A stretch of 63,986 nucleotides of DNA, filler included, from Collodictyon triciliatum (lineage: Eukaryota): assembly GCA_043381765.1 (NCBI GenBank). It is 4 parts of 4 records of this genome, joined end to end, with 100 filler letters (N's around TTAATTAATTAA, not from the genome) between each part and the next. Parts side by side here need not be neighbours in the genome. Positions count along the whole stretch, not along the records: positions 48,842 to 63,986 come from JBHJMP010001613.1; 3 more parts are not named here. One strand, 5' to 3'. Made by a program: the position numbers and the translations under genes. This document shows, in pieces, positions 3,656 through 63,986 of this stretch. Numbering within the stretch: the stretch's first letter is position 1; every line of letters starts with the position of its first letter. Below the pieces are notes generated by a model that worked only from the letters and a program-made list of their open reading frames with translations, had not been told where the DNA came from and ran no database searches.

Positions 3656-3751
<96 letters not shown>

Positions 3752-26090: not shown

Positions 26091-26323
26091 GAAAGCAGCG
26101 GCCCTCCATCCCCCTTTTTGTTTCTGGCGTGTGCGCGTGTGTGCGAGGATGTGGCTCTGGTTGTCTGCTTGCACAAAGACACGCGAATAAACGCAACCTT
26201 TGTGATTTAATTAACGCGCATGCCTTCTGAGGCAACAGAGCAGGCCGATGGGCGGAGGCGTTCTTATCTCCTGCAGTCTGCCGATAAGGCTCGGCCCTAT
26301 GATTGTTTCTCACGCATGGAGCT

Positions 26324-26730
26324 TTATTCCTTTCGTCCGAGTCTGCTTGTTGGCAGGGGTCTCCAGTGTGTGCTTTGTTGGGCAGAGACTTGCGTCTACG
26401 TTTTCTTCCTTATTCTGCTCTGCTCTGTTCTGTTTTGTTTTGCTTTGTTTTTTTTCGCAGGGCGGTCGAGAATGAGCGGAGGAGGTTTTACAAATCCTTT
26501 GTCAGCTCACGGAACTTGTCGACAAGGTCTTTGCACTTGTGGTGGTGATTGGCCCGCTCCACAAAGTAGCACTCGCGCAGCTGGCGGCGCACAAGCTTGG
26601 CCTGCTCGATGCGGATCATGCGGTCGCGCGTGGCCTGGTCCTTGGCGTCCATGGAGGCAATCAGCTCGTTTGGATCAAGCTGCTCTGCGCTGGGCACGCG
26701 GGGGAAGTGGCGGCTCGAGTCGGTGGCCAT
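26324..26730 (-). CDS. NDUFB10: Complex I accessory subunit NDUFB10 (PDSW)
   Basis: RDRMIRIEQAKLVRRQLRECYFVERANHHHKCKDLV. Unspliced stop at 26488; a short second exon (LLGRKE*) ending 26324 is phase-compatible. Confidence 0.85.
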
Positions 26731-27074
26731 TCTGTGGGTCTGGCGAAGAAGCGTGTCAGTACAGAGTTGCGGTCGGCTTCGTTGGCAGCCGGGGATAATG
26801 CCGGCGAAGTCATGTGATTGTGCCAGTGGCTGTCTGCACGTCCCAGGTTTTAGGGGTTCGGAGAGTAGCAGTGAAAAGAAAAAGGGGGTAGGGCAAAGAG
26901 CTGAGAAAGAAAAAAAAAATAGGGGAGAGGAAGGAAAGAGTTCGACAGAGTTGAATGCCTTTCTTTAAGGATTTCTGAACTCATTTTTTTTTTTGTTTTC
27001 AGATTCAGAAATACTTGCTCTGCTCCAGTCTTCAGCGTGGCTGCGCTTGGAGAGACACTCTCCCACAACGCAAC

Positions 27075-28259: not shown

Positions 28260-28300
<41 letters not shown>

Positions 28301-37059: not shown

Positions 37060-37138
<79 letters not shown>

Positions 37139-38029: not shown

Positions 38030-41000
38030 ATGAGCGCAAGTCCTGTGCCTGTGTCGGCTTCGCTGCGCGCAGGCAGGCGATCGTCCCCGCCTGAGGCGCA
38101 GTCCATCTGGTCGAGCACACGCAGCCAGAAACCCTCCGCCATCGCCACGTCTGCGCTGCTTTCCGGCCGCGAGGAGACCGGCATGCCGGCCGCCCACGAG
38201 CTGCCCTCCGCAATCCTGTTTCCCTCTCCTGTCGAGCCGTCCCGTCGAGCCGAGCCGCTGCGGCCGGCGCAAAGACAGACCTTCGATGCCTTCACGCCGA
38301 CGAGAGAGCAGCCCCGGGTGCTTTCCATGGACGAGTCTCTTCGCGAGGCCCTCATCGATGGTGCGCAGTACACTCTGGACGGGAGGGCCGCGTCCATCCC
38401 AGGTGGCTCCGACAGCCCTTTGTTCGCCCTCCAGAACGTACACGACTATGATGCAGACCCTTACTACCGGCCAAAGACTCCCCCGATATCGTCTTTTGCA
38501 TCGCTCATCGGCGAGAGCAGCCGTGCAGCCCGTTCTAGCCATGAGAAGGCAGCCTCGCATCCGGTGCAAATGAGTGACATCCAAGCTGCAAGCGAGCTCA
38601 GCGAGCTGAGAAATGTGGTTGCAGAGCTAGAGGCAAAGGTAATTTCTTTCTATCTCTATTAATGCTACAATGACCAGAATGATATAATACAGTCCTTAAA
38701 CATATTTGATAACGAATTCCATAGAAAAAAAAAGGACAGAAAAAAAGTATCACTTTTATACCCATCATAAAACCTGATGCAAATTGGTGCACGCAAAACA
38801 TTCAACTACTTTCCATTATAACATAAAGTTACAATCAATAACCGCACGGAATCAGCGACTAACTAAAGAAGCTCATGAAGCAAACGCCATGCTGAGAAGA
38901 ACACAGAGTGAAAAGGATATATTTTCGTCTCTCATTGATGACACATCATCTCTTGTAATGCAAAAGTATAATTCACTCTCTTTGTCATACCCGAAAAGCA
39001 TTCCCAAGGAAGGAGATACTCCTGAGGAGTCTTATAGTCCAAAAATAGCACAATTTCGTACCCTCGTATATCATTTGCTTGGGGACATTTCTAAATTCCA
39101 TAGAGAGAACAGGTTAACACATGTGTCTAATCAACTCCACTCTTTAGATATTGGCCACCAAAATTATGAAAAATGCACTCCATTTCATTATCTCATATTT
39201 ACTTATTTTATTCTCCTTTGCATAGTTCAATTTAATTCAATTTAGTTATATTTTATTGTATTCATTGAATGGAGTAAAGAAAAAATGTTTTATTGTATAG
39301 CATTTCATCGGTTATTTTATATCTCCTCAAATCCCCGTTAAAAAAAACAGGGTGAAAAAGAATTTGTTCTTTTCCCCCAGAAACCGTAAATCTAACCATA
39401 CATGTATCACACACTATATCTATAGGAAATTTATTAGAGAGCATACTGAAGTAAGCTCTCAGCTAGAATCTCTGTCTAAAAGAGACCTTATTTCTGTTCA
39501 AATAGATTCAGAATTTGCATCTTTTAAAAGCCAACTGTCGCCATTTGATTATTCTATCCGAATAATTCAAGCCATAGATACCAAAATTCAAAAGCTTCAA
39601 CTTCAATCTAATAAGAACCGGATCGTTGATGAGAAACATTCAGAACTGAGCATGGGCATGAAGGATATAGCCTTGGGCCATAACCAATACAAAGTCGATG
39701 AGAAAGAAGAACAAATCAAACAACTTCAAAAAGAAATTGAAATCATATCCCAAGATAGGGACAAGTATTTTATGGATTCTAAACAATATCAGTTGCAAAT
39801 AGATTTATTACACCAATCTCTCATCGGCTTGAGGTCAACAAAGATTCGATACCAAAGGAATTCAACAAACACCGAGATTCAAAGTGACGAGCTTTATTAT
39901 GTAGGGGTTTTTTTTAAATGAAAAGATGAATAAAATGCAACTGAATTAAATATGAATATTCTTTGTATTGGAAATTATATCATAGTATTTATATCCTTAT
40001 TCTTTGTTTAGTTTAGTTTAGTCTTCATGTAACAATAACAGGAAAAAAATCTTGCAGGATAAAGATAGAGCGGAGCATGAAAGAATAAGTTTGAAGGAAA
40101 CTCTCATAGTTGCCATAACAAAATTGAGTGGTTCCTTAGCTGGCTTAGCTCCTACTATTGATTACTCAGATGATAAGTCATCTGAATCTATTGTTGATAA
40201 GTTTCATTCTCTTGTAGATGAAATATTTTCACAGGTTTTGATGTCATATTCTTCTTTTTTTTTTTTTTATTCAGAATCATAATTGCAACACTCGCACAAA
40301 ATATGAAAAAAAAATGGTTGCTTCTTTATTTTTTATATTTCATAATGCAAATAAATAGAGTCCTTGTACGATTTATCTTTAAAAAACAAAACGTTCTTTC
40401 TTTTTTAATTGGACTTTATGATTCTTCAACGATAGATGCAGAAACTTCGTCATGAAAATCACTTGATGCAGGCTACTCTTGGGCAAATGGAGTCATTTAA
40501 AGAAGAAGCACATACAGAACTGACACAAAGAGCCCGGGCTATTGATGAAGGAAAGCGATTGCATAGTATGGAACTATATAAGATGAAAGAGATAAAACTA
40601 CAACTGGAAAGTGAATTGGACAAAGTCCGAGCAGAGTTACATGAATCTTTAGGAAACATAGAAAGTATGTCAAAAGCCATTATGTTTGCAACTCGCTCCA
40701 TGAAAGAAAATTTGTCACCAAACGAGCTTCACCAGTCTACCAAATCCATATCCTCATTTACATCAGCAACTTCTGGAGTTGAACCTCGCGTTTATCCTAG
40801 AAAAATCCTTTGTGTTTTTGAGACGGTTTTTTCGTCTTTCTTACTGAAATTTTCATCAGAATCAACAAGGTCTAAAGATAAAGACTCACAAATTGGAGAA
40901 CTTCGAAATACAAATGATAGATTAAGACAGGATTATCAAGAGTTAATGCTGTTTAATACAAAACTGCAGAGACAAATAAAAGAAGCCAGACATTCCTACA

Positions 41001-44000
41001 CAACCCAAGCTGATGAAACTAGTGACCTTTTAGAGGATGTTAAGACATTAGAAGAAGAAAAAGCAAATCTTCAAAACGAAATTGAAAGAGCGAAAAAATT
41101 ATACGAAAAAATGTCTGCTGAATACGACCAATCTGAAAAGCTCAACACATCTATATCAAACCAATTACTGTCGCTATGCCAAATGTTTGAACTTGATGTC
41201 TTTGGGTCTGAGGTAGCGAAATTATGATTTATTTTTTAAATAAAAGAATTTCTCTATGCTCAAGCTGGTTTTTAAATGAAAGAAAAATAATCGAACTAAT
41301 ACACTTTCTTATCTAGAGGAAATCATTCAACATGGAATATGATAAAGTAAGCCACATATTGGACATCTTGTCATCACATTTAGAAGAGTACAGAAACACA
41401 TATTTCAGATTGTGGCAGGAAAATGATAATTTAAAAGTAGAAAAAGATTATTGCAAACAACAGGGACTGAAATATCAGGCCATATTGACTGAATCCTTAC
41501 GATTACTACACCCGTTTGTTCATGAATCAAGCTATGACCTCGATTATCACCAAAGTGAAGTGGATTATGCATCCTTACCTAGCACAATAACTTCCTTAAT
41601 CGGTACATGGCAGGCACATTCAAACGAAAGTCACTCTTTAAAAATACAAAATCAGCTTATTCTTCAACAGTATCAGGCATTAAAAAAATATATTGAAACT
41701 GAAATGGCAGAGTCCCAGTCATCTCTCACAAAAATCAAGCAAGTTTTATCGTTGGAGCAATTAGAAGCAAAAGAGCTCACTGAAAAAGCACAACAGATAC
41801 AAGATGACCTCCAAAAGAGTAAATCGAAACGTGATTACTACATGAGCATGCTTATATCGATAGTTTCAACATTATTTCAGAAAATAAGCTTTCATGAAAT
41901 TACGGATGAATTCGAGCATAGTGCTCAATTTGCTATCGATGCTGATACTCTGGAAAAAAGTGAAGTCATCTTCAAATGGGTTGATGATTCGATGGATTAC
42001 ATAGACCGATTGAGGGATTCCATCACCGAAGTACAGTCAAGGTTAGTGATTTCAGAGGTTCGCTCAGGCGAATTACAATCTAATCTCCACCAGCTGCGTC
42101 GAGACTTGGATATGATAAACAACCAAAACCAGATATACCAAAATGAAAATAGACATCTCATGGAATGTTTGAATACTAGCGACATGAAAATAGAGTCCCT
42201 TTCTAGGCAATTAGTAGGTTTGCACTCTGAACAAACAGAAATGAGGCAATGGATGGAGGACTCTCGAAAATTCATAGATGAAATGAATGTTTTAATAGAA
42301 ACATCCAATCAAGTAATGCAAGCAGAAGTCTCATCCAACTTACTGATGATAGAGTCTGTCGGACTAGGTACCATCGATCAACAGCAGACTGTATCCTCTT
42401 ACATGGTCACAGAGATAGATGAATCATCTGTGAATGTACATATGAGGACTCGTGTTTCAGAGAATATTCAAAAGCTGATTCAGTCCACGAAATCGCTCAG
42501 GGAAATTATTCATAGATATAAGGCCACTGAAGAGAACTACAAACTAGACCTGTCCAAGGCTAAAGTTCAGATTGAGGCAAACCAGCATCAGCTCGGTATT
42601 CTGGAAGACGAAGTAAGGAAGGCTAATCAACTTGTTACTCAAAAGCAGCAGAAGATGGACGAAATAATCATGGAATCAAGCGTGTCGCAATCCAACTTGA
42701 GGTGATTTTTTTTTTTAAGAAATAATAACACTTTGTTTGGTTTTTTTTTAACACAAAATCAATTTCCATTTAATTTCCGACTTACAATTTCATATATTCA
42801 CTATTTATTATGATTATTTTTTGTTATAGTTATTGTTATTGTCATTATAGTTATATATAATATATTGCTTCTTTTCTCATCTTTTCCACTTTATTAAGTC
42901 GGGTAGAATTTGAGCATAGCGCCAAGATATGGATTGATCATTTATTTTTTTGAAAAAAAAATTAAAATAAAAAAAAAACAGGAAGGACCTCGCTCAACTG
43001 AGCAGCGCATTACAGGAAAAAGAAATGCTTCTAAAAGAGGATACATTAAATCTTCGAAAACAATTATCTGTGAAAGAGGCTACGATGTCAGAACAAATCA
43101 ATACGATTGAAAAAATCACGGAGCAGAATCGTTTGCTAATCCGATATCACACAAAGACTTCCTCGATATTATCATCCAGTATCCAACATATCCATGATAT
43201 TTACAAATCTTTAAACATACCATCAGGGAATTCATTCTCTCGAAGAAGATTCGTCAAACTAGGAACTCTTAGAGACGGAGATATAAGCCAAACAGATGAT
43301 GAAGATTTGATATCTGATTACGAAAAAGCGTGGGATGATTTCACGAGAACTTTTAGAGCAGCTTACGCTTTGCAGCAAAAATCCAGCGATAAATATCATC
43401 TTGCAGAGTCCGATGCACATAACCACTATGAAAAATTAAAAATACAAGACCAAGAAATAGAGAGTCTTCGTTTCAAACTCGAAGAAGCAAATGACAGAAA
43501 TCGTGAGTTTGTCAAAGAACGCCATATTTTATTAGATAAGCTATCTTATATGGATGAAGAGAAAAGGGTGATGAAAGAGCAATTACACAAAACTCAGGAA
43601 GAAGCCAAAGCAATTATTGCTCGATTAGAGGAAAGCGAGGAATTGCATCTAGAGAATGAGAGGCTTTCAAAATGCTGTATTGAAGCTCAAGAGAACATAT
43701 CATCATTGAAAGAACAAATGAGCAAATATGACGAACAAACAGAGCTCTTGACACGTTCATTGCGGCATGAAAAAGTTAAGAAAAGCTCAATAGTAAAAAT
43801 TCTTGAGACAACATTACAGCACTTACGTCAATCAAACTTGTCAGTTGGGAACATCATGAATGACTTATCATCCACAGGAACACCTGTTGATCGGCCTCTA
43901 GATAGCTTTATATCATTCTCTGCCAATCCAAGTGCCAATCTGAGTTCCAATGCGTCGCAGGGTCACAAAACAATATCCAAATTTGAAGAGGAGTCAATAT

Positions 44001-44311
44001 CTTTGAAAAAGGAGTTTGAACTGCAACTAGAGAGGCTTCAGCTTTTATTGCTACAGCTGAAAGAGGCGAATGAATACTTGCAGAAGTGTTGTAGGCAATA
44101 TCAAAAAGAAGCAGAGAAGAAAGATAAGGACATCTCAAATCTTGGAGCTCAGATACAATCTACCAGGAAAGAAGCCCAAGCACTGCGGTCAGAGTACGAT
44201 GTCCTAAAGAAGAGACACACGTCCCAATTGCAACAAAACCTCTCACAACATGAAGCTAAATTAAAAACTGTAGAGGGAGAGCTCAGAACCGCTGTCGGGT
44301 TTCTAAAATAA
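38030..44311 (+). CDS. Large coiled-coil protein (>1400 aa) with Pro/Ser-rich N-terminus
   Basis: Series of spliceable exons, two of them 1.3-1.4 kb, rich in E/K/Q/L heptads; no family recognised. May be continuous with the PDE; 3' end uncertain. Confidence 0.8.
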
Positions 44312-44484: not shown

Positions 44485-45065
44485 TAAAACAGTTTACGGA
44501 TGCATAAAAGAGAGAAGAAAAAAAAAAAACAAAGTTCATACAACATAGAGCTCCAAGGATTGGTGGGTATGATTCCCTGTTGGTGGACGTAAAATCACAA
44601 TGAGGGAGCCTACCTCTTTTCTTGTTCCTTTTATTTCTTTTTCCTCTTGTCCAAGTACAGGGAAGCGACGACATGAAAAAGAAAAAGAAAAAGGAAATGC
44701 ATACCTAAACCTTTGCTCGGCTTCAAGGTTCTGAGGATTGTGTTTCCTTGCAAGTATGGTGCACCCTCATCACCACCCTGGCTCATCTCAAAGCGCAAGC
44801 CGCAATGACACCCCAAAATCTGGTTGGCGCCGGTGACAGCACAAAGCCCGAAAGGGCAATCACAAAGGCCATACACGCGGGCGTTGTCCAATCTGGGGCT
44901 TGAATGAAGACTCTACAAACGTGCGCCTGGCGCTGCCAAAGGGGCTGTCGCTTTCTGCTTGGGCGCCGAGTAGCAACGAAGCAAAAAGCCGCCGTGCCCA
45001 AACACGACAGGAGCAGCCGACTGACAGGTGGCTGATCTACTTAGGCGTTGTGCGCAGAGCCTGCA

Positions 45066-48609
<3,544 letters not shown>

Positions 48610-48841: not shown

Positions 48842-48992
48842 TTTTTTTTTTTTTTTTCCTTTTTTTTTTTTTTTTTACGACCAACAGGAAATCAGTTTCC
48901 ATTCTGGCTTTAGATGATGATTCTTATATGTCGCATCGATTTTTTTTTTTTTTGCATTTGCCACAACACTTAACTCCTCGCACAACTGCTAG

Positions 48993-51900
48993 GCCCTTCT
49001 CGAATGGGTCAATTACAACCTCGATAAAATGGGGATAAAATCGAAGAATCTGCGTCAGGACATGAATGACGGATTTTTTCTCATTCTGTTGGTGAATATT
49101 ACCACCGGAGACAGTGTAGAAGCCTATCATACCCGCATATCCTTGTATGTTTGACAATTTTAAAATAAAGTCATTTTTTATACGTTCACTTTCAAAGAAA
49201 AATTCTTTTTCAAACTACCAAAAACAAATCTAATCAACAATTAGTGATCAACCTATCGAGGATGATGTCATTGTGAAAGAGAATCAATTAATCATGCGTC
49301 GATGGATAGCCACAAGACTCAAAGCAGATCACGAGGGCTCTCTGGAATTCATAAATCCGGACTTTAAAGGTGACAAGATATTTCATCTTATTCCCTATTT
49401 ATTATTGGCTCTTTCTATTACTTTCATTTAGTTTGATATAATACGTGTTGTAGTGTAACTTAAACGGATATAATTCCTATTAAAAACTTTTATTTTGCGC
49501 AGAAATTGTAAGGCTTACTCTATGGCACCTAGTTCATGCATCTATAGGATTAGATGAAGGAATTGAGGTACTGAATTCAATATCTCCCTGCACCATATAC
49601 GCCTCATTTATCTAATTAAAATAATCACAGAGAAATATACCTGAAATGTATGCAAGAGCCAAGCAAATCTTCTCTCGAACCAAAGTTCCATTTCCTTTCC
49701 AAGGTTTGATATAAATTCGATTCGAACCAAATTATTAAAAACTTGCTTCCTCTTTTTCTTTTTTTTTCATTTGGTATATAATTTTTTTTTTAAAAAAAAA
49801 GTAAATTCAAACTGCGATACTCTTTATTTTTTTAGGTCTGGGATTGGAAGATAAAGGGGATGTCATATTTATTAGAGCAAGCATTCTACTAGACAAAGTT
49901 TTTATTTATTTGCCATCTCGTTTTTTTTTATATAAAAAAAAGAATAATTAAAGCCAACATATGCCTCTAGAGCTAATTACAACATCTCCCTGATATCCAA
50001 ATTAGATATGCCCCTCAAATCATGACCAGAAATTGAAAAAGTGGCTTCCTCCTCCACAAAAATACACGACATCGAAGACGCTTGATCTGGATATATTCAA
50101 CGAGCGTGTAATCCGTGTCTTCTTTTCATCTGATGTCGATTTTGGTAGAATGAGAAAGAAATTCTTCGAACATGGCGGTAAAAAGTAAGTGATTATAAGC
50201 TGGTCTAAATGTCTAGCTGATCTATCTGCTGTATTATATTACCTAGTTTAATTTATGCCTTCCTTTATAAAGTATATACTGTAAAGATTGCAGGAATATG
50301 TGTCTTCGATTGGATTTGAATTGGTTTTCATCGACCTTCGTTGTGGGGTAAATTCAGGAGACAGCAAGGAAGGATGGGTAACCTCCTCCCTCAAAATAAA
50401 AAAAAAACATGCAAAATTTGTCTTCATATTGTCCAATAACAGTTCTTAATTTTCTGATAATTTTTTCAAGGCCATTATCCACAGTCTCGAATGCATAAAA
50501 AAATGTGCATACTTTGTGTGTGCTCTTGGAACTCACTACGGATGGACGCCTGACCAAAACAAATTAGAAACCAACGTAAAGGAACGATTTGAAGAACTGG
50601 CAAATCAAAACCCTGATGCTCGAATTGAAGATGTCCAAATCGAATGGAGATCATCAGCCAGCTTTTTGTTTCCCTTTATAGATTCAATGCCCGGTCTCAG
50701 TGTCACAGAATACGAGGTTAACCATTGATTTTCTATTTTTTCAATGTATTTTTATCGTTGTCACATTCTAATTAAGGAAATCAAAAGAAAGTATTTCTGA
50801 TGTTAAGCCATTTTAAATAACTATAAGGTTCAATATGCTGCACTTTTGGAAACCCCTAAGTGTAGTCGTGTCTTTTTCTACTTTTTGGATGCCGAATCAC
50901 CTACTCTTGCAGTCTCTGAAGACAGCAACCATATATCTGAAAAGGATATGCAATCGGTGGCCAACTCATCCTCTTATTTAAGAGCTATTAAAATATACAA
51001 TAAATCATTTTAATTTCTTTATTTGGTGAGTAACAAGTCTACACATATAGATAAATAAGCAAGAAACATTAAAAGGGAAGGTGATTGAGAAATATGGGCA
51101 TTTCTCTATCAAGAATGAGCAAGATTTTTTGGATTTAGTCCAGTCTCAACTACAGCATGCAATCAAACTAGATTTTTCGTGCACAGAGGTAAAAATTTCA
51201 ATCTGAGTAATATTCGGAGGTATCCCTTAATAAACTATTGAAAAAAAAGGTTGGAGATGCAGAAGATAGAGGACATGAGCAATTTAAGCTATTTCACTTA
51301 AATCGAGTCTTTAATCAGAGAGGAATTTTGAAAACCATTCATACTCAGGTAAAGCTATTTTCTTTTCTTTTTATTTAAAAAGAGAGAGAAAATTGGAATA
51401 ACTATTCACGCCATTCCATTAACAATGAACTGTGAAAGATATTGGAAAACATCTTGGAAGAAAATAGCAGACCTATTATCCTGTCTGGAGAATCAGGAAT
51501 AGGAAAGTCATCCATGATGTCAGTCATAGTTCAGAATCTAGAGGGATTAAATGATTCAAACCTCTCTATATTCTATCACTTTGTGGGGTGCACACACAGA
51601 AGCTATTTCGTGGAGAGGTAAATTTTCTGTTCACATATTTGCTTAACACAGCATTTTCTAGTCTCTCTTTCAACTCATGAAATATATTATATTTACATAA
51701 TTGTATTTATTATTCAAATATCTCAACAGTATTGTACTGCGCTTCTGGGAACTACTTACATCATCCAGAGGCGAATCATTTGATGATGATGGAAATGAGA
51801 GTAATTTTGAATACACTATTTGTATTATCGCTATCACCATTTTTTCACGGGTATCTAGTTTTTTTTCCTTTATTCGATTCAAAGATTCACGGGTATCTAG

Positions 51901-54900
51901 TTTGAATTGTACTTACTTATCAACATTTAAGATACGAAAGCGATGGGTCTATTCGATTTATTTAATCATGCTAAGCATAATAAAAGGTATAGCGTCTTAT
52001 CAAACTCTTTTACTTTGTTTTACAATTCATAATTCTAATATGATCTTTAATACCATAGCAGGGATGAGCGCTTCGTCTTTGTAATCGATGGTGTCAATCA
52101 ATTAAAGCCATCTATTGGAAATGCATATCCCCATCTTCTCCATTGGTTACCCAAAACAATTCCAAAGAGCATATGTTTGATCGTTTCTGGAGAGACTGGC
52201 CTCATACCTCAAGAAGTACACTCTAATACAAAGTTCAAATATTGTAAAAAGAATATTATTTCTTTTCTCTTTTTCTAAATTCTGTTTCATATATATCAAA
52301 ATACTATGTGACCACGTATACCTTATTGTTGCTAGACTCTATCAGAATTTTGTGCATACGAAGCAAATGCGATGATTGCAGACGAAATAGAAGAAGCAAT
52401 ACAGTCCATTTCTTACCAATTTGAAAAAAAACTAAGCTCCCAACAGGTTGCTATGATAACGGAGCTATATGATCGAACAGGTACTTTCTTTTCCTTTGTC
52501 CTACCTTCTAGCTAATATTTGAGTATTTAATCCTTCACAAAAAAAAAAAGAAGTTCAATTCAATCTATCAAGCACATGCCCTCACTTTATGAAATCTAAT
52601 TAAATCTTTATATTCATTTTTAGAAGATCAATAATTATTTTGTAACGATACTGACCATAATTGCTTAATATTGATAGGTCATCCCTTCTATCTGCGCACT
52701 CTTTTGGATGAGTTCCTTAGTTCTGGAATGTCCGATAGTTTGGGCTGTGACCTCGGTGCCCTTTTACGCTCAGAAAATGGAGAAATTCTGAGCTTTGCCA
52801 TAATAAAGAACTTAGAATCACGATATAATCAAAATGGTAACTTTCCATATTTTTAAAGAACAAACGAGTAACTGATTGCATCAACAAATCCTTTAGTCAC
52901 GTGCTTTTGAATGCTCGATTTTTCATTTTATTGAGTAACTCAAAAGGATCTTCGATGGTTGATTCGTGTATGTTGGGTCTACTTGTCTCTAGAATCGGTC
53001 TCACAGAAGATGGATTGGAAAAATATACCGAATATGTTATGAGTGCATGTATTGACGTATCTTTGTGGTATGTTTTTTTTAAAAAAATTTGAGTCCACAT
53101 TTATCGATAATATATCCATGTCATCATTCCTCTTTGTTACAAACAATTAATGGGAATTAAAATAAAATAAAAACAGGACCTCGTTCTTTTTCAGACTAAA
53201 GAACTTTCTTTTTGTTAGAAACGGCAGGCATGTCTCATACTTTTGAGTTACAAATACCTCAGAAATTTAACCATAATTAATAAATATTCCACATCTGACA
53301 TACTAAACATAACGTATTAGATACGTTTATTCGCACCCACACTTCGCTGACGCTGTCAGCAAGTACTTTTTTCAAGACCGTCTAGCTAAGATTAAAGTAC
53401 ATAAGGAGTTTGGAACTTGGTTGTTAAGTCAATACTACTATTCCCCTGCTGCGGATGAAGACATCATAGGAGAAATATGCCATCAGCTTTTTGAAGGAGA
53501 AAACTATGACTTACTTGTGCAATACTTAAGCGAAGACCATGTATTATATACCAACCTACTGATTTCCGAAAGTTCGAATTGAATGCTATAATGTAGTCGA
53601 GCGTAAAGTCAACTCATAATGATCTTCAAATTAGGTTGTTATTGCGATGCTGAGAGGAATTTATCGCACAGAGTTTTTCTACTATTGGAAGATTATGAAC
53701 AGTAAAAGAGTGGCAAATCACTTAGAAGTCTATGAAAGAAAAATACAGGTAAGTGTCATTCTTGAAGCAATGTCGCACCAATTTTTTTTATTCATTTGCT
53801 TTATTATATTTATGTCATATTTTACGAAACCAATTAGAAATCAAATGAAGTTGGAGATGTTCTCTCGGAATATTTTCTAGAATGCTACGAATTAGAATTT
53901 GTTTTGCATGGAGTCACCCAACGTGTTTCAACCAAAAAAAGTGAAGGTGAGATTATCTTAGTAGTTACTTGTGCTAATATTAAATTATTTCCTTTTTGTT
54001 GTTGTTAGAAAACTCTTTAAAATTGAATAACCCACAGAATCAAAATTAAGAGACTACTACACCCTTGGAATTGCATCCAAAGGCATTCATAAGTAACCAA
54101 ACACAAGCTTTTCTGAACAAATAAGAAATAGAAAAAGTGCTTTAGAAAAGATAAATAATTTAGAATAAGACAGGATGAAAATAATGCAACTGATTTTCAT
54201 TTATCTTAAGGTGGGAGGAAGCCATTTACTATTTCAAAAGATGTCTCAAGATACAGGATGAATTCGGACAAACAAGTGACCAGTTGGCCACCTGTCCTCA
54301 CAAAGAATTGGGAGATATTTACAAATACCAAGGGAGGTAAATAGTGATTTATAGCAAAAACATCTACTGGTAGTATAGCAAAACTAATACCTTTAATAAT
54401 TTATCGAATAAAGGGAAAAAATAATCTTAAAAAAAATTAAGGTTCGAGCTAGCCAAAGAGGAATACAATAAAAGTTTACTATTGGCATCAAGTAAATCTG
54501 AGCAAGCAGACATTTGCGTAGCTGAAATCTATGACTGTTTCGGCGATATGCACTTACTCAGCGAGAGGTTTTTCAATCATCTATCATTTGTAAAAATTAC
54601 ATGTCATAATCATTTAACATTTATCTTTTTATTTTAAAAAAATATTTGTTACTAAATTGGCTGTTTATTTTTATTTTTATTTTTGTACAATAATACCCTC
54701 TCCGAACTGTAGCATAGTCTTAGTATCTATTTTTAATTACAACTAAGAAAATTTCCAAAATTTTAGTAGCAAGCTGGCCATGTCTGAGTACGAAAAGTCT
54801 CTGAAAATCCGTACCAATATACTTGGCTATGTGCATCCTCTGCTTGCGACTTCCTATATCAGAATGGGACGTGCTCAAATGGCTGATAGGAAGTTTGAAC

Positions 54901-57900
54901 TTTTGCTTTTATATGGATACAGCATAGAATGTGTATATGATTCTCGAAATATGCATACTAAAGTAAAATTTTGAATGAATTTTCCCGCCAGACTTAGCGA
55001 ATCTGCTCGATTATTTGAGAAGGCCGAAGACATACTCGAGAAGACCCTTGGAAATATACATCCCAAAATAGCCATGGCCCTCTTTGATATTGGAGAGTCA
55101 TTATTCAAAATTGGAAAGTATGCCACAAAAATGTGATTAAAATGTCATGAATATTGCAAACTAATAGATTTCTATCTTTGAAAAGAATGTACGATAGCTT
55201 GCTTTACTTCATCCCAGCCCTGTCCATGTTCCTTGACACTTTGGGAGAGAAAAACATATTTGTTGCTTTATGCTTCCAAATGATTGGTGATGCAAATCAC
55301 GATTTGAACGAGTATTTTGCTTCCTTTTTTTTTCACGACTTTTATATAAATATCATGAATTAGCAGAGAACTGTGGCTTCTCTATTTTTCATTTAATTTC
55401 AAACATAATACCTTTTTCAGATTTTAAAATTGAATAAAAGAAAAATTGGGATGCTTTTTCAAAGTTCCCTCATAATACTGATCCTTTTTTATTTTTTCAT
55501 ATATTTTACCCTAGGTACAGCGCAGCTTTAGAATCCTACGAAAAATTGATGGAAATTAACAGATTACTATTCGGGGAAAATCATCCCAACTATGCTTGTT
55601 CTCTCGAAAATGTCGGTAGATCCAATTTTGAGTTGCAGGAGTACGTTTTTATTTTCATATCATATACTTTTCTATTTTTTCTTCATTTTTTGGGTGCAAA
55701 GTTGTTTATATTCAAACTTACATATCTCTTGATGATCAAAGAGTCTAATGATATGAAACAGGTATTTCGACTTCGTCTACTATTTTAAAAAGGCAGTCTC
55801 AATACGAAGAGAAACAAAAACCATCGTTTCAATGAAGAGTATATCCCAGGCCAAAAATATGATAGAGTATTTCAAGGCTAATCCAGACTACGAAATCGTC
55901 ATCGAGCTATATAAGACAATATTCTCATCCGTTCTAGACCAATTTGACTCGAGCTCCATTATGCTATGGAATGTCTATTATGATATCGAAAAAGTACACA
56001 AAACGATTAATAAGCACGAAGAAGCAATCGAATTCTGGACGGAAATTAGAGATACATTTACCGAAAAACTTGGATGGACCCACCCAATAACTCTAAACTC
56101 CTGCGAGTACTTATCATATCACTCTAAAGAAATAGGCATCCTTAAAGAGCCCTTCGAATTCACAAGGGTTAAATATCTCATTGAGGAAAATTTCAAAGAT
56201 ATAAAACCTGACCAATCTTGGGGCCGCGACTTTGTGATTGAGCGCCTTCTTGATATTATATACATGTCAAGAAGTGATGAGAGTAAATCAAAGACAGCAT
56301 CTGATGCAATTACTTTCCTTAACTATATGCGCATTTCTTTTAGTAGAATGGATTTTTCATTCATCAGAATTCCTAATGCTGACCTCAGCAATTCAATAAT
56401 TGATGGTGCAAACTTCACGGGCGCCATACTAGATGGTGTTAATTTCTCAAATTCCATTCTTGGCGATTGTATTTTTGATGACGCAAGCATGAAAAGTGTT
56501 AAATTAGGTCGCATGCATACGCGACTAGAGGGACATCTAAATACCATCACTAATCTGGCGTACATTCAGGCGCCAACCGGAGAAAATTTACTTGTCTCGA
56601 GCAGTAACGATAAAACCATCGCAATATGGGATTTGGCCACCGGAAATCAAATCCAATTATTAAAGGGTCATACGGGAGCCGTCAGAGCCCTGTGTGTGAT
56701 TCAGGAAACACATGGAAAAAATAAGGTGATATCAGGAAGCAATGATAGTACAATAAGAATTTGGGATTTAGACTCTGAAGAGCAGAATAGAGTACTAGAG
56801 GGTCATAAAGGAGCTGTCACTAGTGTTTCCATTTTCCAAGGATCCGATGGTGACCACTGGTTGGCTTCTGGAAGTGATGATAACACAATACGTATATGGA
56901 ATGTGTTCAGTGGGAATCAAATCAAAGTGCTAGAAGGCCACACAGAATCTGTAACATGCCTGTGTAGTATCCAAAGACCGAGTGGTGACCACTGGCTGGC
57001 TTCTGGAAGTGATGATAACACAATACGTATATGGGATGTGCTCAGTGGTAATGAAGTAAGAATACTAGAAGGGCATTTGGGCCCCTTAAAATGTATATCT
57101 AGCGTTCAAATTCCAGACGGGGCAATCTGGTTAGCATCCGGAAGTGACGACGAAACCATTCGTACGTGGGATGTGGACACTGGAAATCCGATTTACATAT
57201 TAAGAGGCCACACAAACAAGGTCAATTGTATTCAATTTGCCAAATATTCATCTGGAAACCATCTCCTTATCACTGGCAGCGATGATATCTCGCTACGCGT
57301 CTGGGACATAACCACTGGAGATCAAATTCGAGTCATGAACGGACATACAAGCTCTGTTATATGTCTTTGTAGCATTCCAGGACCTAATGGCGAGAATTGG
57401 CTAGCCTCTGGTAGTGTTGACAAAACGATACAAATTTGGGATATGGACGCAAATAGCCTAGTCGTAAACTCAAAGGGACATGAGGATTACGTGGCCAGCG
57501 TTTGCCAAGTTACCGGCCCCAATGGAAGAAATTGGCTGGCTTCTGGAAGTGTAGACAAGACTGTTCGTATTTGGGATGTGGCCACCAGAAATCAAATTAG
57601 AGTCTTGGATGGGCATGAACATGCTGTTACTAGTGTTTGTAGTATCAAAGGACCTAAAGGTGAAAATTGGCTGGCATCTGGAAGTGAAGATAAAACGGTT
57701 CGTATATGGGACATCAGTCAAGATGAAGAAATCGTTACTCTTGAGGGACATGAGGATACAGTAAGGTGCGTCTGTTACATTCAAGGGCCAAATGGAGAAA
57801 ATCTTGTGGCATCTGGAAGTAACGATACAACAATACGCATTTGGGATTTGGAACATGGAAGTTTGATCAGAACTCTTGAGGGGCACAAAAAACCGGTCTT

Positions 57901-60900
57901 TTGTGTTTGTAGTATCCAAGGGCCGAAAGGAGAACATTGGTTGGTGTCCGGGAGTGCCGACAAGACCATTCGTGTGTGGGACTTGAGTACCGGGGATCAG
58001 ATCAAGCTATTACTCGGGCACCGTGATTGGGTATTTTGTATATGCAAAATCACATGGATCAACGGCGAAAATTGGTTGGTGTCTGGGGGCGCTGACAGAA
58101 CAATACGTATTTGGGATTTGCCTTTCGAGGACGAAATCAGGTCGTGGATAGGGCATACAGGCACCATAATCAGCGTGTGTAGCATCAAAGGACCCCATGG
58201 TGAAAATTGGTTGGCAAGCAGCGGTGATGATAGAACTGTTCGTATTTGGAATTTGGATAGCAGTACGTTGGTAAGAAATATAGAATCCAACTACATCATG
58301 ACCAGCCTTTGTACATCTGCCGGGTCTGGAGCAGAAAATTTACTCTTATCCGGCTGCGGTGACTGCTCAATTCGCATTTGGGATTTGGATAGTCCTCCTA
58401 AGGTTGAAAATTCTCTATTGTTACCAAAATTAATTCTAGACCATGCGAAAAGCAACTGCAGAAATCGGTTCAATCGCTTGGTTTGTACTAAGTATGCCAA
58501 GGAGATTCACATTTGGGACATATTTGAAGGAAGCCAACTACAAGTTTTGGAGGTCCACGATACCGTCGAAGTTTTAAGCATATGCATTGTTGAATGCTCG
58601 AATGGTGACTATTGGTTGGTCTCTGGATGTAACGACAAAATCATCCGAATCTGGGACGTAGCCACCGGAAGCCAGATTAGAAATCTTGTGGGGCATGCCA
58701 GTGATGTATGTACTGTTTGCAGTATTCAAGGAATGAATGGTGAAATGTGGCTAGCATCTGGAAGCACTGACAAAACAATACGAGTATGGGATTTAGAGAC
58801 TGGATGCCAAGTTATGAAATTAGAAGGTCACGAAGGTGCTGTTTTTATCGTTTATAATATCAAGGTGGTGAATGGAAAACCATGGCTGGCATCTGGAAGT
58901 GAGGATATGACCGTGCGCATTTGGGATTTGACAACGTCCAACGAAATAATGAAATTCAAAGGGCACGAAGGTGGTGTCAACGGAATTTGCTATCTGAAAG
59001 GTATTTGGGGAAACGATTGCTTGGTATCTGGCAGTTCTGACAAGACAGTGCGCCTTTGGGATTTACAAACTGGTGCCCAAACCCATGTATTGGATGGTCA
59101 TGAGGACAGTGTCATGAATGTGTCTTGTATACGAGGTCAAACGAATATTATAATTGTTGCTGGATGTCTTGATAGCACTCTTCATTTTTGGAACACAGAT
59201 ACTAAGGAAAGAACGAAAACCTTGAATGGTTATGACCATTTCCTTCTTGACCCACAATTCAAAAAAGGCCCGAGAGGTAAAAACCTGTTTATTTATGGAG
59301 ATGATGGCGCTATTTGTGTATGGGATACCTGCTCTGAGTTTCACGTGAAAAAAATTCAAGTTCTGAACTACATTAACAGTGTATGCAGCACGCAAGGGCC
59401 AAAAGGAGAGAATTGGTTGGTGTCTGGAAGCAATGATAAGATGCTTACTATTTGGAACTCAGAAAATGGAAGTCAACTAGTTGACATGGAGGTTCACAAT
59501 AGCTGTGTTAATACAGTTTGCAGCGTACAAGGCCCAAGTGGAGAGAAATGGATAGCTTCTGGAAGTGATGATAAGATGATTTACATTTGGGATGTAATTA
59601 ATGGGAGTCAAATGAAAAAATTGAGTGGGCATACAAATGCAATTTTAGCTCTTTGCCACGTGAGAGGTAGAAACGGAGAAAACTGGCTAATATCTGGTGG
59701 TAGCGATAGATTAATAATCATTTGGGATGTCATCACTGGATATAAGCTCAAGACTCTAGAGGGACACACAGATTCTGTGAAGTGCTTGTGTGCTGTTGTA
59801 GGCTCGAATGGTGAGAATTGGATAGCCTCTGGAAGTAGCGATAGTACGGTACGAGTTTGGGATTTGGAAACTGGAAGTTTAATTCAAATTTTAGGGGGAG
59901 AAGAAAATATTGTCAATAGTATCTGTTCTATTCAAAGTCCAGACGGAGTAAACTGGCTCGCTTCTGGAGGTGACGATAAAACAATACGTGTTTGGGATAT
60001 ACAATCTGGAAAACAAGTCAAAGTATTAAATGGGCATCTGAAACGTGTCTATTGTATTTGCAACATTACGGGGCCTAATGGTGAGTATTGGTTGATTTCT
60101 GGTGGAGACGACGGTACTTTACGTATTTGGGATTTGATTACATGTAACCAAGTAAAAATGCAAAGAATGCAGTCGAAGCGAGTGAGCTTCATTCATCAGT
60201 TGCAAGGACCAAATGGAGAAATTCGACTGGCATTTGGGGGTGACAAAAAGGCGATTCTATTCTGGGATTTGGTGCCTTCTAACCAGATTGGTATGTTTTC
60301 GGGACACCAAGATATTGTAACACGCGCAATTATTACTTATGGGCCAAATGAGGAAACCTGGCTGGCCTCTGCAAGTTTTGATAAAACGATACGAATCTGG
60401 GACTTGTCTAGCGGGAAACAAGTCAGGGTATTTGAAGGACACACAGACATTGTGACAACAATGTGCTATACCCGAAGTATGTTTGGAGATAATTGGTTGA
60501 TTTCAGGAAGCGGCGACAAAACCATCCGTGTATGGGATATCGTCACTGGTGATCAAATTAAAATCTTGGAGGGAAGCCTTAAAAAAATTATAGATGTCTG
60601 CCCTCTCCGTGGGAAAAATGGTGAGCGGTGGTTGGCCTCCGGGTCTAAAGATAGCAAAGTTATTGTCTGGGATTTAGACTCTGGAGATCAAACCAAGGTA
60701 TTGCAGGGACATATTGGGAATGTGACAACTCTATGTAATATCCAGAGGCCAGATGGACCCCCTTTACTTGCATCAGGAAGCTATGATGGAACAGTACGTA
60801 TTTGGGATCTCCCAAGTGGGAATCAAGTCCAATCGCTGAATTGTCTTTCAAAGGTTGTATCCATTTGTGTGTTCAAGGGTCCCAAGGGAGAAACTTGGCT

Positions 60901-63043
60901 TGTATCTGCCGGAAAAGATAAAACGATCCGTATTTGGAACATCTACGAGGGTTCTCAAGTAAGGGTGATAAGCGCTAATTCAAGTGATATATCAAGCATT
61001 TGTCACATTAAAGGACTTTATGGAGCGGACTGGTTTGCATGCGGCAATAAAGACAGTAGTATTCATATTTGGGACATGAGGTCTGGAAATCAGATCAAAA
61101 AAATTGAAGGGCATAGTGGCGCAATATACTCCCTATGTGAAGTTCCCACTACTACCGAAAGCAGTTTGCTGATTTCTGCAGGCAAAGATAAGACCATTAG
61201 AATGTGGGATCTGACTCCTGTTTATCAGTGTAAAATTCTTCTGGCGGAAGAGCAGGCAACTACATGTGTTTGTCATATTAAAGGAGATTCTGGAGAGAAC
61301 TGGATTGCTCTTGGCAGAGAGTGTGGTATGATTTCCATTTGGGATATGCTCACAAAAACTCAACTGAGAATCCTAACCGGGCACGAAAACTGTGTCATGG
61401 GAATATGCCACATCCGAGGTCCCAATGGAGAGAGCTGGATAGCTTCTGGTAGCTGTGATAAAACCATCATTATCTGGGATGTTGGCACTGGTAGTCAGAT
61501 TAGAACTTTGGAGGGCCACACTGACTACATTAGGTGTGTCTGTAGCATCCAAGGGCCCAAAGGAGAAAATTGGCTTGTGTCGGGAAGCTGCGACAAAAAA
61601 ATCATGATATGGGACATTGCTTCAGGAGATCAAGTCAGCGTGCTAGAGGGTCATGCTGGCACTATAAGAAGTCTGTGTAGTACAGCAGGTCGAAATGGAG
61701 AAAGCTGGCTAGCATCTGGCGGCAGTGATAATGCAGTTTGTATCTGGGACATAGATACTGGATTTGAAATTGAACTTTTGGATGGACACACGTCAAGTGT
61801 GTTGTGTGTCTGTAGTATTCAGGGGCCAGGAGGGAACAATTGGTTGGCCTCTGGAGGAAAGGATAAGGTCATTTATATCTGGGATGTTAAAGATGGGAGT
61901 AAAATCAAGACACTCGAAGGACATACAGATTATGTTCGATGTGTTTGCAGCATTCAAGGCCCGAATGGAGAAAAGTGGCTGGCTTCTGGAAGCGATGACA
62001 AGACCATACGCATTTGGGATATAATGAAGGGAGAGCAAATCAAAATTTTGGGAGGACATGCAAGATACATTTGGGATGTTTGCAGTATTCAAGGCCCGAA
62101 AGGAGAAAACTGGTTGGTTTCAGCAAGCGATGACAAGACTGTGCGTATCTGGGACTTGTGTGATGCGAATGATATAATCTCTCTTAATCCTTTGTCGGAA
62201 TCTATTTCCAATAGTTTCGGAATCGAAGAGCAAAATGGAGAGAATTGGTTGGTCTACGTATCTGAAGACTATGTCATCAGCGTTTGGCGCTTGCAAAAAG
62301 GGAGACATATGTATCTCAAAGGACATTCTAAACCAGTCGGTGCTATTTGCTTGCTGGAAGGGTTTGATAAAGAAAAATGGCTAGCATCCGGAAGCTGTGA
62401 TGGAACCATCAGAATTTGGGATTTGAGTAATGGTAACCAAGTAAAATGTCTGGACCTCAACGGAGAAAAGTCTATGTGTATCAGCAATCTTCAGGGTCCT
62501 GATGGAGAGAATTTGTTGGCTTCTCGAAACGGTGATGGCAGTGTATGTGTGTGGGATTTAAGTACGTGCGAGAAAGTATATTCTGCTCACAAAACCAATC
62601 TATCATTTACAGCTGACGGATATCTGATGATGAAAGAAAATTCTGGGAAAATCCTGGCTCGATTCAAAAATGCATTCGACGCCTTAAATTTACTTGATTC
62701 AAACAAAATTTCTGAAGAGAAAACAAAAGGTATCATCGGCCCGTCCAAGATGATTGGCGGAAACCTACAATTAAGGAACACAAAAGACTTGAGCTTGTTC
62801 AATAGAAAGGTTTTGCTGTCGATTGGTGCCGTATCGTACGATTGCAATTTCGAAAAATATTGCAAATTATCGAATTACACAAACTTCCAGGCTCATATCA
62901 TGTCGAAGTGCTATGAAAATGGATATGGAACAGAAAAGGATATAGAAAAGGCTGTTGTGTGGATTGCAAAGGCTGGGAAATTGGGAAGTAATCACCGCCC
63001 AATCGAAAAATACCTTTTTTCCATGCGTCATGCCCTTGCTTAA
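48993..63043 (+). CDS. Giant NLR-like STAND protein: CH - DUF4062 - NACHT - TPR - pentapeptide - ~45 WD40 - Sel1 (5' probably truncated)
   Basis: ALLEWVN...NLRQDMNDGFFLILLV (CH); IRVFFSS, FIDLRCG, LGTHYGWTP, SVTEYEV (DUF4062); Walker A GESGIGKSS at 51487, YHFVG, Walker B FVIDGVNQL, WLP, GHPFYL; TPRs LGYVHPLLA, LGNIHPKIA, FGENHPNYA; phase-2 splice GA|G into a 7282-bp terminal exon (55762-63043). Confidence 0.9.
56531..62558 (+). repeat. Coding tandem array of ~45 WD40 repeats, ~135-nt unit
   Basis: Hand count; consensus GHxxxVxCVCSIQGPNGENWLASGSDDKTIRIWD. Confidence 0.92.
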
Positions 63044-63650
63044 AACTTGGTCATCACTAAATGGAGATGATTCGAGAGAACACAAAAAAAAAAAAAAAAA
63101 AATTCGATTGCACTGCCACCCACCCTGGCCTGGACGTGTCCCCGCTTCTTTTGGATTGCAGGAACTCTGGAGACATAAAATATGCAATTATTGAATTTTT
63201 GAGTTCAAAAATTTTTTTTATTAAATCATTTTATTTTAATCAAATGGTGCTGTTCTCATGAAATTATTGTATATGAACCTTGTGTCAAATGGTGATTCTA
63301 ATTCTCGAGAGAAATCAAGAAATAGACCATCGTGCCGCTCTTGTGATTATATCTTCCGAGGTGTACATAACAAGTAAAAAAAAAAATGTCTAGTTCATGT
63401 CATGTGTACTTTTTATTATTTTTTGTGTGTTTTTATTTGTTTCAAGTGGAGTTCGTGATACTATCGGTTGGTCGATTACGAGCCTGTATGGTAGACACCC
63501 AGATTGTCTAAAAGATAATTCTGGCAAGATGGCTACCTCTGGAAAAAAAGACATTCTTAATGGACACGTCAAGTGAGTGACCCGGCGTTTGGTTGGCTGT
63601 GTGGATAGAGGGGGTTGGATATGTTGTGGGAGGTATCTCATGATACATTC

Positions 63651-63878
63651 TCATATCTCCGCGTGTGGTCGTAGGAGCGGAGAATATGCGCGTGTTTCAG
63701 CATGCTGTTCAAGAGGCTGTATTGCATGAGGCTTTCTAGCTTGAATTTGCTGCCTTCTCGTTCTAGTGGGTCATTAGAGCGAGAGGATGCATGCGCACTC
63801 CGTAATGGTCTTCACCGTATGTCCCATTGCCGCTGTACAGATAATTCCAGGGTCGTGGGTCATTTGAACGTGTTTTGG
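63651..63878 (-). CDS. Possible last two exons of an unidentified gene
   Basis: Acceptor CCAG| then KTRSNDPRPWNYLYSGNGTYGEDHYG, GT donor, acceptor ACAG| then HAETRAYSPLLRPHAEI*; GC-richer than flanks; no homology recognised. Confidence 0.3.
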
Positions 63879-63882
63879 CTGG

Positions 63883-63986
63883 TTTTTTCTTTCTTATTTT
63901 TCTTTTTTTTCTTTTTTTTCTTTTTTTTCTTTTTTTTCTTTTTTTTCTTTTTTTTCTTTTTTTTCTTTTTTTTCTTTTTTTTCTTT
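63883..63986. repeat. (T7-9C)n low-complexity repeat
   Basis: Directly visible. Confidence 0.93.

Follow-up and report, generated by a model that had tools for sequence, protein, structure and literature searches.

A spliced NLR-like gene of Collodictyon triciliatum with a pentapeptide-WD40 cassette in a 7.3-kb intronless exon: an old composite family and probable wholesale 3' intron loss

Pentapeptide repeats are counted among the sensor repeats of NACHT proteins, and repeated transfers between bacteria and eukaryotes are argued, in a study of bacterial NACHT (bNACHT) anti-phage proteins (Kibby et al., 10.1101/2022.07.19.500537); for one eukaryotic group, the Mortierellomycota, a preprint reports the acquisition of NACHT-PPR-WD40 receptors (PPR, pentapeptide repeat) from Mycoavidus (Ciach et al., 10.1101/2021.12.02.471044). 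Here we describe a gene of Collodictyon triciliatum (GenBank assembly GCA_043381765.1) that bears this kind of pentapeptide-WD40 sensor, hereafter the cassette. It lies in a 63,986-nt stretch of DNA, hereafter the window, which consists of four parts from four records joined by 100 filler letters each and not necessarily neighbors in the genome; positions 48,842 to 63,986 come from JBHJMP010001613.1. At this locus a single expressed gene of no fewer than 3,543 codons encodes an NLR-like STAND switch, laid out as a calponin-homology (CH) domain, DUF4062, NACHT, a winged helix, an array of nine TPR units, a short pentapeptide beta-helix, 45 WD40 blades and a Sel1-like tail. Everything upstream of its last exon is dense in introns, and the last exon, which holds the cassette, has none. 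As an explanation of the whole we favor, with a probability of about 55%, an old composite family in which this member lost its 3' introns by way of a cDNA.

The last exon, from 55762 to 63043 (+ strand), is 7,282 nt long, contains no intron and closes with the stop codon TAA at 63041-63043 inside a stop-free frame of 2,428 codons (55757-63043, standard code). A first-pass annotation made from the sequence alone had proposed a terminal exon of just this kind, and it is borne out down to its first base, which is pinned by an RNA contig of run X5 that joins 55640 to 55762 over a 121-nt GT..AG gap. Nine further GT..AG joints are seen in RNA contigs (49367>49501, 49565>49629, 50184>50287, 53540>53635, 53746>53836, 53944>54036, 54092>54211, 54334>54440 and 54892>54992), and the ten gaps measure 63-133 nt each and all fall between 49367 and 55762. 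These joints derive from contigs of three freshwater or lake metatranscriptome runs, alongside which one metagenome (DNA) run was compared; many contigs from these four independent DNA and RNA runs are 99-100% alike to the locus, and the stretch is contained in shares of 0.05-0.18 of freshwater, lake and subsurface runs. Within the last exon, RNA depth is found in at least one run in every one of the 15 bins (500 nt each, 55500 to 62999), with cover that is patchy and partly only 90-95% alike, and no GT..AG joint occurs in 55762-63043 among the RNA and DNA contig joints listed. Four joints are listed there, none of them canonical; their sides measure 21-25 letters, most have extra letters in between, and two come from the DNA run. 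We interpret them as cross-matches among WD40 repeats or paralogs. The splice at 55640>55762 and the nine other joints link the parts of the locus, and a Diphylleia rotans transcript, P0042, is collinear with the product, so that the parts belong to one spliced gene. An artefact of assembly or annotation, in which two genes were wrongly joined on a scaffold that does contain N gaps (for instance near 48.8 kb), is practically negligible against the RNA splice across the border, the near-identity of independent DNA and RNA contigs, and the collinearity of P0042 over the same border.

For the part upstream of the last exon, exons were chained by dynamic programming with the ten RNA-supported introns held fixed, followed by two hand corrections made without RNA support (the GC-AG intron 53228-53320 and the 126-nt exon 54992-55117). 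The resulting model has 29 exons and 3,543 codons, and its 5' part counts 28 introns of 61-203 nt per 3,350 coding nt, with a mean exon length of 120 nt (range 51-246); 10 of the 28 introns are RNA-supported and 18 are predicted, one of them as GC-AG. At this last position only the GC-AG splice preserves the frame and matches P0042 (...SLFVRNGRYMYFHQ), and no RNA joint spans it in the contigs of the three RNA runs. The introns are AT-rich (mean GC 0.265), and an origin from introners was rejected when all-against-all BLASTN of the 28 introns returned only A/T-rich matches of 14-19 nt. The intron-dense 5' half of the first-pass annotation thus stands in substance, though not in its extent, as the gene starts farther upstream. 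The ATG at 49294 is the start of the model and not of the gene: an exon encoding part of a CH domain precedes it, with 44% identity to residues 189-238 of P0042 and 40% to residues 127-176 of a second relative, P0156 (tblastn), and the true 5' end is at or beyond this exon, beside the N gap at about 48.74-48.85 kb.

The domains encoded by the short exons score modestly in isolation and more clearly in P0042. On exon 50471-50716 DUF4062 reaches 21.1 bits (E 3.7e-4, under the Pfam cutoff of 24.7), and the equivalent region of P0042 reaches 43.7 bits (E 3.3e-11). Single exons give 23.0 bits for NPHP3_N and 21.0 and 19.4 bits for NACHT, all under cutoff, and P0042 scores 26.7 bits for NACHT, which is exactly the Pfam cutoff. 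A P-loop of the form GxxxxGK[ST] and a Walker B strand lie in this NACHT-type domain, as in STAND proteins, and DUF4062 sits directly N-terminal to it, as in the DUF4062-NACHT group (the nephrocystin-3, TEP1 and NWD1 kind) to which the nearest relatives outside Diphylleia belong. Behind the winged-helix region, each of six consecutive 126-nt exons encodes one 42-residue TPR unit and is entered in phase 2; the RNA joints at 54092>54211, 54334>54440, 54892>54992 and 55640>55762 fall in this region. Single units 1-6 match TPR_12 weakly (best E 2.5e-6, 28 bits against a cutoff of 30.1), with 136.5 bits for TPR_12 in P0042. As the six exons are only 26-40% alike in DNA and their introns are unalike, the pattern of one exon per repeat is old.

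The last exon begins with three more 126-nt units in the same register, units 7-9, in which the phase-2 introns are absent. An AlphaFold model of the first 306 exon residues, computed from an alignment of them with six relatives, the fragment P0005 and five Diphylleia proteins (mean pLDDT 82.3), folds these units into three helical hairpins (helices 2-18, 27-39, 43-60, 66-82, 85-103 and 108-123); the solved structures that match best are TPR domains of kinesin light chain, with E 1.4e-4 and TM-scores of just 0.26-0.35. The array is thus of the kinesin-light-chain type, by profile for units 1-6 and by fold only for units 7-9. After the hairpins the model shows four short helices ending in ASDAITFLNYM, a beta-helix with one strand residue per five positions (residues 197-250), and then WD40 strands; Pfam Pentapeptide (PF00805) matches with E 7.8e-16 at about 56375-56476 (exon residues ~205-238). 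The WD40 array, of the unit type GH..V.S.C.IQGPNGE.WLASGS.DKTIRIWD, takes up about 83% of the exon (2,022 of 2,427 codons) with an unbroken 45-residue period, which leaves 1,212 nt or 404 codons of other content. Translated, the frame contains both amino acid strings quoted in the first-pass annotation: ASDAITFLNYMRISFSRMDFSFIRIPNADLS...ASMKSVKLG precedes the repeats and LQLRNTKDLSLFNRKVLLSIGA follows them. The tail shares 33% identity with the C-terminus of P0042, up to the last residues of the latter, and its Sel1-like repeat scores 25.1 bits (E 2.4e-5, under the cutoff of 30.7).

The order of junction motif, pentapeptide repeats and WD40 array in this exon is that of the canonical cassette, whose genes are single long open reading frames (ORFs) of about 1,000 to 4,000 codons in metagenome contigs and bacterial genomes. 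NACHT lies directly upstream of the cassette in 25 of 32 metagenome ORFs (20 at or above the Pfam cutoff), kinase, LRR, TIR, ARM-like and PARP parts occur among the heads of such ORFs, and neither DUF4062 nor TPR_12 is found in any of the 32 canonical N-terminal parts. Compost metagenome contigs (L004-L074, GC 0.36-0.41) carry dozens of paralogous cassette ORFs, typically of 1,500-2,400 codons. A motif scan of prokaryotes returned at least 120 stretches, and among the 80 loci read (L104-L183) 26 pass the junction pattern: 20 of Mycoavidus cysteinexigens metagenome-assembled genomes (MAGs), 4 of Gammaproteobacteria MAGs, 1 of Coxiellaceae and 1 of Chlamydiae. The other 54 fail it; five of these are variant cassettes by eye (L117, L152, L164, L167 and L182, from two Tatlockia, one Myxococcales and two Gammaproteobacteria) and the rest are chance matches. 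Among the 80 loci the canonical cassette is therefore concentrated in bacteria that live within eukaryotic cells (Mycoavidus, Coxiellaceae and Chlamydiae, with Tatlockia bearing variant junctions). A protein of Reticulomyxa filosa also bears the cassette. The first-pass annotation had assigned the module to the kind of another STAND family, and its recurrence behind an unrelated NACHT in metagenome ORFs, Mycoavidus and Reticulomyxa agrees with this. The kinship of its flanks with Mycoavidus proteins, likewise proposed there, holds on one side of the array: junction motif, pentapeptide stretch and WD40 are shared, and the post-array flank is shared weakly. A profile hidden Markov model (HMM) of this flank (..L..N...L.....LL...GA) matches near the C-terminus of the canonical proteins L038 (E 1.7e-5) and L061 (1.6e-4), with only 4 of 55 sequences at E <0.05 and, at E<=10, 22 matches in real against 7 in reversed control sequences.

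Relatives of the whole gene are found in Diphylleia rotans. A search with 120 residues of the junction against 1.84 billion representative proteins gave 7,850 matches at E<=1e-3, mostly generic pentapeptide proteins, and a small set that aligns in one stretch at 40-66%; matches in a TPR context are only P0042, P0034 and P0044, all D. rotans transcripts from EukProt with kinesin-light-chain-type TPRs before the junction, and the 132-residue fragment P0005 (66%). A search with the NACHT part of P0042 yielded three EukProt Trinity transcripts, P0156 (54%) and P0158 (71%), laid out as P0042, and P0157 (44% to the NACHT part of P0042), for which the chassis and TPRs are listed without pentapeptide or WD40 matches; these three were assigned by this kind of source, which they share with P0042, rather than by name look-up. 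In BLASTP of the spliced product, P0042 (2,619 residues) is collinear with the window protein throughout, residues 26-1116 aligning with 274-1372 at 37% (1,112 columns, E 0) and the head of the last exon aligning from residue 1380 onward at 36%. For the D. rotans transcripts, collinearity over NACHT half, TPR array, cassette and tail is at 33-39% identity. P0042, P0156, P0158, P0034 and P0044 all align with the window protein over the TPR head, junction, pentapeptide part and tail. Among the 152 proteins fetched, canonical members included, the N-terminal half of the window protein matches only Diphylleia proteins in BLASTP at E<=1e-3. In a quick NACHT tree the window protein, P0042, P0156 and P0157 form one clade with an SH-aLRT of 100 on a long stem, set apart from nephrocystin-3-like and TEP1-like proteins. 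No second copy of the gene is found in the window (tblastn of P0042), and no close relative in the metagenome scan, where the best match reaches 53% over 76 residues. Identity in the NACHT half is 0.56-0.72 among the Diphylleia paralogs against 0.36-0.42 to the window protein, and over all pairs the sensor part gives 0.19-0.36 for TPR units 7-9 and 0.26-0.41 for junction and tail. Fast sensor evolution is usual for receptor families and blurs fine topology; in P0042, P0156, P0158 and P0044 the contrast reflects either rapid diversification of the sensor or a homogenization or exchange of the NACHT half between paralogs.

These relatives bear directly on the central proposal of the first-pass annotation, that a foreign cassette was captured by this very gene through retroposition, horizontal transfer or recombination, with the exon border as the join. 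The sharp change of intron density at 55762, the presence of the cassette family on other N-termini elsewhere and a run of 19 A residues after the stop codon are what such a capture could leave behind. The join itself, however, with the same order of TPR units, cassette and tail, recurs in five transcripts of Diphylleia (21-41% identity), and the NACHT of the window gene groups with those proteins. Nor does the exon mark a graft, as the exon border is not the cassette join: it sits inside the TPR array, three units or 126 codons before similarity to the cassette sets in, and likeness to canonical cassette proteins begins at exon residues 126-160. A compositional difference between the halves is lacking as well. 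Third-position G+C (GC3) amounts to 0.381 for the 5' exons, 0.389 for the WD40 array, 0.406 for what remains of the last exon and 0.364 for a neighboring gene, and chi-square tests of synonymous codons give p=0.41 for the 5' part against the non-WD40 3' part and p=0.047 against the WD40 array; the comparison of codon usage that had been suggested as a check thus shows no difference in GC3 or synonymous use, hence no foreign signature of the kind expected from recently transferred DNA. The higher total G+C of the exon (0.40-0.44 against 0.32-0.34) is due to the absence of AT-rich introns and to second codon positions. A recent graft is thereby largely refuted and, in our estimate, very improbable. 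Against its own proposal the first-pass annotation had set a single vertical phylogeny for both halves together with introns in the cassettes of orthologs; of this pair, we find that both halves do share their relatives. That domains were exchanged between STAND families at some time can nevertheless be fairly inferred from the sequences, since the NACHT half is nephrocystin-3/TEP1-like while the cassette sits on an unrelated NACHT elsewhere. The best reading is that the cassette joined in an ancestor common to the window gene and several D. rotans genes and not in the window gene itself. To call the cassette foreign in style is accordingly correct for the kinship of the module, and by these comparisons the graft appears ancient and family-wide.

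The intronless exon is real and lies far beyond chance. At the intron density of the 5' part, 60.9 introns are expected in its 7,282 nt (P of none 4e-27) and 10.1 in the 1,212 nt outside the WD40 array (P of none 4e-5); when only the ten RNA-supported introns are used, the probabilities become 4e-10 for the whole exon and 0.03 for the non-WD40 part. Repeat expansion alone, in which one intron-free WD40 unit multiplied, would account for most of the length, as some 83% of the exon is a strict array of 45-residue units and the number of units varies among relatives (45 here, 18 separated out of P0042). It would leave unexplained why the 404 non-WD40 codons are intronless too, and Tandem Repeats Finder detects no DNA-level tandem repeat in the exon, whose units are only about 38% alike, so that any expansion is old and a recent one is rejected. 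Units within the array are in fact as distant from each other as from Diphylleia units (mean identity 0.377 among themselves and 0.374 with the units of P0042), which speaks against recent growth of the array. We regard repeat expansion by itself as improbable. Because units 7-9 continue the TPR register without its introns, and because ten introns would be expected in the non-WD40 nucleotides, intron loss is favored over repeat growth alone.

In Fink's model, recombination of a gene with its reverse-transcribed mRNA removes introns and leaves mainly 5' ones. The same could have happened here: a reverse-transcribed copy of the gene's own or a paralog's mRNA would have recombined with the gene, with the 5' crossover inside the exon of TPR unit 7, so that intron 28 was kept and all introns downstream were lost. 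A crossover at this place would explain why the block starts at a regular, in-phase intron position and why the later unit borders are intronless. As in the model, 5' introns are kept and 3' introns absent, the border lies at a regular intron position and a run of A follows the stop codon; this run, A19 on the sense strand, may be a relic of the mRNA poly(A) tail. A single event of 7.3 kb would be unusually long.

Several observations weigh against this preferred explanation. Units 1-6 each carry a phase-2 intron and units 7-9 none, but the Diphylleia relatives are known as transcripts only, so that a loss is not separated from introns that never existed. The A19 run, although a poly(A) tract at the 3' end as expected of a processed mRNA, is weak evidence in an AT-rich genome: the 62,738 non-N bases of the window hold nine A or T runs of at least 15, mostly intergenic (two A runs on the + strand, the other with 36 A at 28263, and seven T runs), the rough chance of such a run in this 3' flank is 2-4%, and RNA contigs are also found at 63000-63435, so that the transcript may run through it. 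A target-site duplication is lacking, the longest exact match between 63095-63180 and 55300-55830 being 8 nt, which is not damaging since none is expected if the 5' end recombined homologously. Furthermore, long exons are not foreign to this genome, as apparent long exons, open frames of 792-1,389 nt, occur in a neighboring coiled-coil gene, whence intron density varies strongly between neighboring genes. The TPR nature of units 7-9 is in part uncertain, with no TPR called by Pfam, a best domain E of 7e-4 over three sequences with a small HMM of the six upstream units, and the low TM-scores given above. Finally, the order inside the clade of the window and Diphylleia proteins is not resolved by the tree, and P0157 has the chassis without the cassette, which makes sensor swapping within the family possible.

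The main rival is an old intron-free segment. An intronless source, for example a bacterial NLR gene, would have given an ancestor of the family the cassette, possibly along with the last TPR units and the tail; the segment would have gained no introns since, while the chassis kept or multiplied its own. Canonical cassette genes are indeed single long ORFs, the six 126-nt TPR exons could stem from duplication of an exon with its intron, leaving older units 7-9 intronless, and cross-kingdom transfer of the architecture is published (10.1101/2021.12.02.471044; 10.1101/2022.07.19.500537). We consider this somewhat unlikely, because the block starts 126 codons before the cassette and in register with intron-bearing TPR units, because native codon use makes any transfer old and hence allows a long time for intron gain at one intron per 120 nt, and because the A19 run is left unexplained. 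A more specific version of the cDNA explanation, tentative and possible rather than probable, has two events: the fusion, in an ancestor common to the Diphylleia rotans family, of a cassette of the intracellular-bacterial type behind the TPR array of a eukaryotic NACHT protein of the nephrocystin-3/TEP1 type, and the replacement of the 3' two-thirds of the gene in this lineage by a single cDNA of more than 7 kb, which would have removed some tens of introns in one step, its poly(A) tail staying behind 40 nt past the stop codon. It would take the NLR family of the cassette to be one found today in intracellular bacteria (Mycoavidus, Legionellales, Coxiellaceae and Chlamydiae) and the three-part sensor of TPR solenoid, beta-helix and about six propellers to be undescribed. 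Under the broader and preferred explanation, an old composite family with cDNA-mediated loss, the wholesale disappearance of 3' introns is probably real, a neat though unproven case.

If the protein works as other STAND proteins do, its repeats (TPR solenoid, beta-helix and some six propellers) would bind a ligand and autoinhibit the NACHT domain. Ligand binding might then lead to nucleotide exchange and oligomerization of NACHT, which would cluster the N-terminal DUF4062 and CH parts as the output. CH domains are known for actin anchoring, and the one encoded here possibly anchors the protein to actin.

Table 1. Features of the STAND gene in window coordinates
Feature	Position	Strand	Details
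CH-domain exon (part of calponin-homology domain)	48993..49151	+	Pfam CH E 9.1e-6, 26.3 bits against cutoff 26
Intron-dense 5' part	49294..55640	+	28 exons: DUF4062-like, NACHT, winged-helix/helical region, six TPR units
DUF4062-like N-terminal domain, exons 5-7	50006..50716	+	IRVFFSS..., ...CAYFVCALGTHYGW
NACHT core	51439..52215	+	Walker A GESGIGKS in exon 51439-51617; Walker B RFVFVIDGVNQL in exon 52059-52215
Predicted GC-AG intron (GCATGT...TATTAG)	53228..53320	+	joins ...FLFVRNGR to YVYSHPHF
TPR units 1-6	54211..55640	+	six exons of 126 nt, one 42-residue unit per exon, all phase 2
TPR exons 1-3	54211-54336, 54442-54567, 54767-54892	+	gene model
TPR exons 4-6	54992-55117, 55186-55311, 55515-55640	+	gene model
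TPR units 7-9	55762..56139	+	3 x 126 nt, register continued, no phase-2 introns
Pre-cassette helices, junction motif, about ten pentapeptide repeats	56140..56515	+	motif ASDAITFLNYM from 56297
WD40 array	56516..62581	+	45 units of 44-46 residues; Pfam WD40 (PF00400) E 2e-279
Tail	62582..63040	+	153 residues: post-array flank (GGNLQLRNTKDLSLFNRKVLLSIGAVSYD) and one Sel1-like repeat
A19 run, sense strand	63084..63102	+	40 nt past the stop codon

Elsewhere in the window, a multi-exon gene with a vWA domain (46100-48400, +) stands just upstream of the STAND gene and a fragment of a G-protein alpha subunit lies at 3550-4089 (-), both recognized by eye. The coiled-coil gene at 38778-44311 (+) consists of long open frames (468-1,389 nt) that resemble exons, and its 462-residue frame has no relative among longer proteins. 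G+C-rich islands (0.48-0.53 in surroundings of 0.32-0.36) occur at 38030-38662, about 25000-27000 and 44800-45400 and may mark the 5' ends of genes; in the island at 38.0-38.7 kb an open frame directly before the frames of the coiled-coil gene may be its first coding exon. Homopolymers include T24 and T47 at the window start (13-84) and T76 at 37062 (37062-37137), microsatellites are (TTGT)n before 44518 (44490-44517) and (TTTTTTTTC)n at the window end (63883-63986), and N gaps lie near 17.5-18.0, 21.9-22.5 and 48.74-48.85 kb.

Overall, discussion of the pentapeptide-WD40 cassette has until now concerned Mycoavidus and Mortierellomycota; free-living protists of fresh water carry it too, on a NACHT chassis of quite another kind. 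A mobile cassette of this sort widens the view of how NLR-like receptors are assembled from parts over bacteria and eukaryotes. The locus further offers a test case for intron loss within one repeat array, where six units have an intron at a fixed place and the next three have none. It is no new kind of system, and neither cassette mobility nor intron loss alters current concepts. Among the papers found on pentapeptide repeats with NACHT and WD40, supplements aside, none describes a TPR-pentapeptide-WD40 NACHT protein.

Three described groups frame the comparison. With the NACHT-pentapeptide-WD40 NLRs of Mycoavidus and Mortierellomycota the gene shares the junction A[AS][ND]AIT.LN...[IV]P.A[DN]LS, a short pentapeptide stretch and a WD40 array, its pre-flank and pentapeptide part being 43-49% identical to the canonical cassette family and its post-array flank weakly similar in some members. 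Unlike in that family, where the motif follows immediately on NACHT and its helical end in 25 of 32 ORFs, nine TPR units intervene here; the NACHT is of another clade without BLAST similarity, the 45-residue WD40 unit has a GPNGE.W insert and forms 45 blades, and there is an extra Sel1-like tail. With the bNACHT anti-phage proteins (10.1101/2022.07.19.500537) the gene shares the general logic of an effector, a NACHT switch and, at the C-terminus, a sensor built of repeats that form superstructures, which there are LRR, TPR, HEAT, beta-propeller or pentapeptide; it differs in being eukaryotic and spliced. Outside Diphylleia, the NACHT half comes closest to DUF4062-NACHT-TPR proteins annotated as nephrocystin-3 and to TEP1 (DUF4062-NACHT-WD40), with about 22-25% identity in alignments of some 650-750 residues (E 1e-44 to 1e-20). 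These proteins likewise have DUF4062 in front and kinesin-light-chain-type TPRs behind NACHT, but use one kind of repeat each, with no pentapeptide domain among the matches listed. In contrast, the window and Diphylleia proteins combine TPR units, beta-helix and propellers, in a clade of their own on a long stem.

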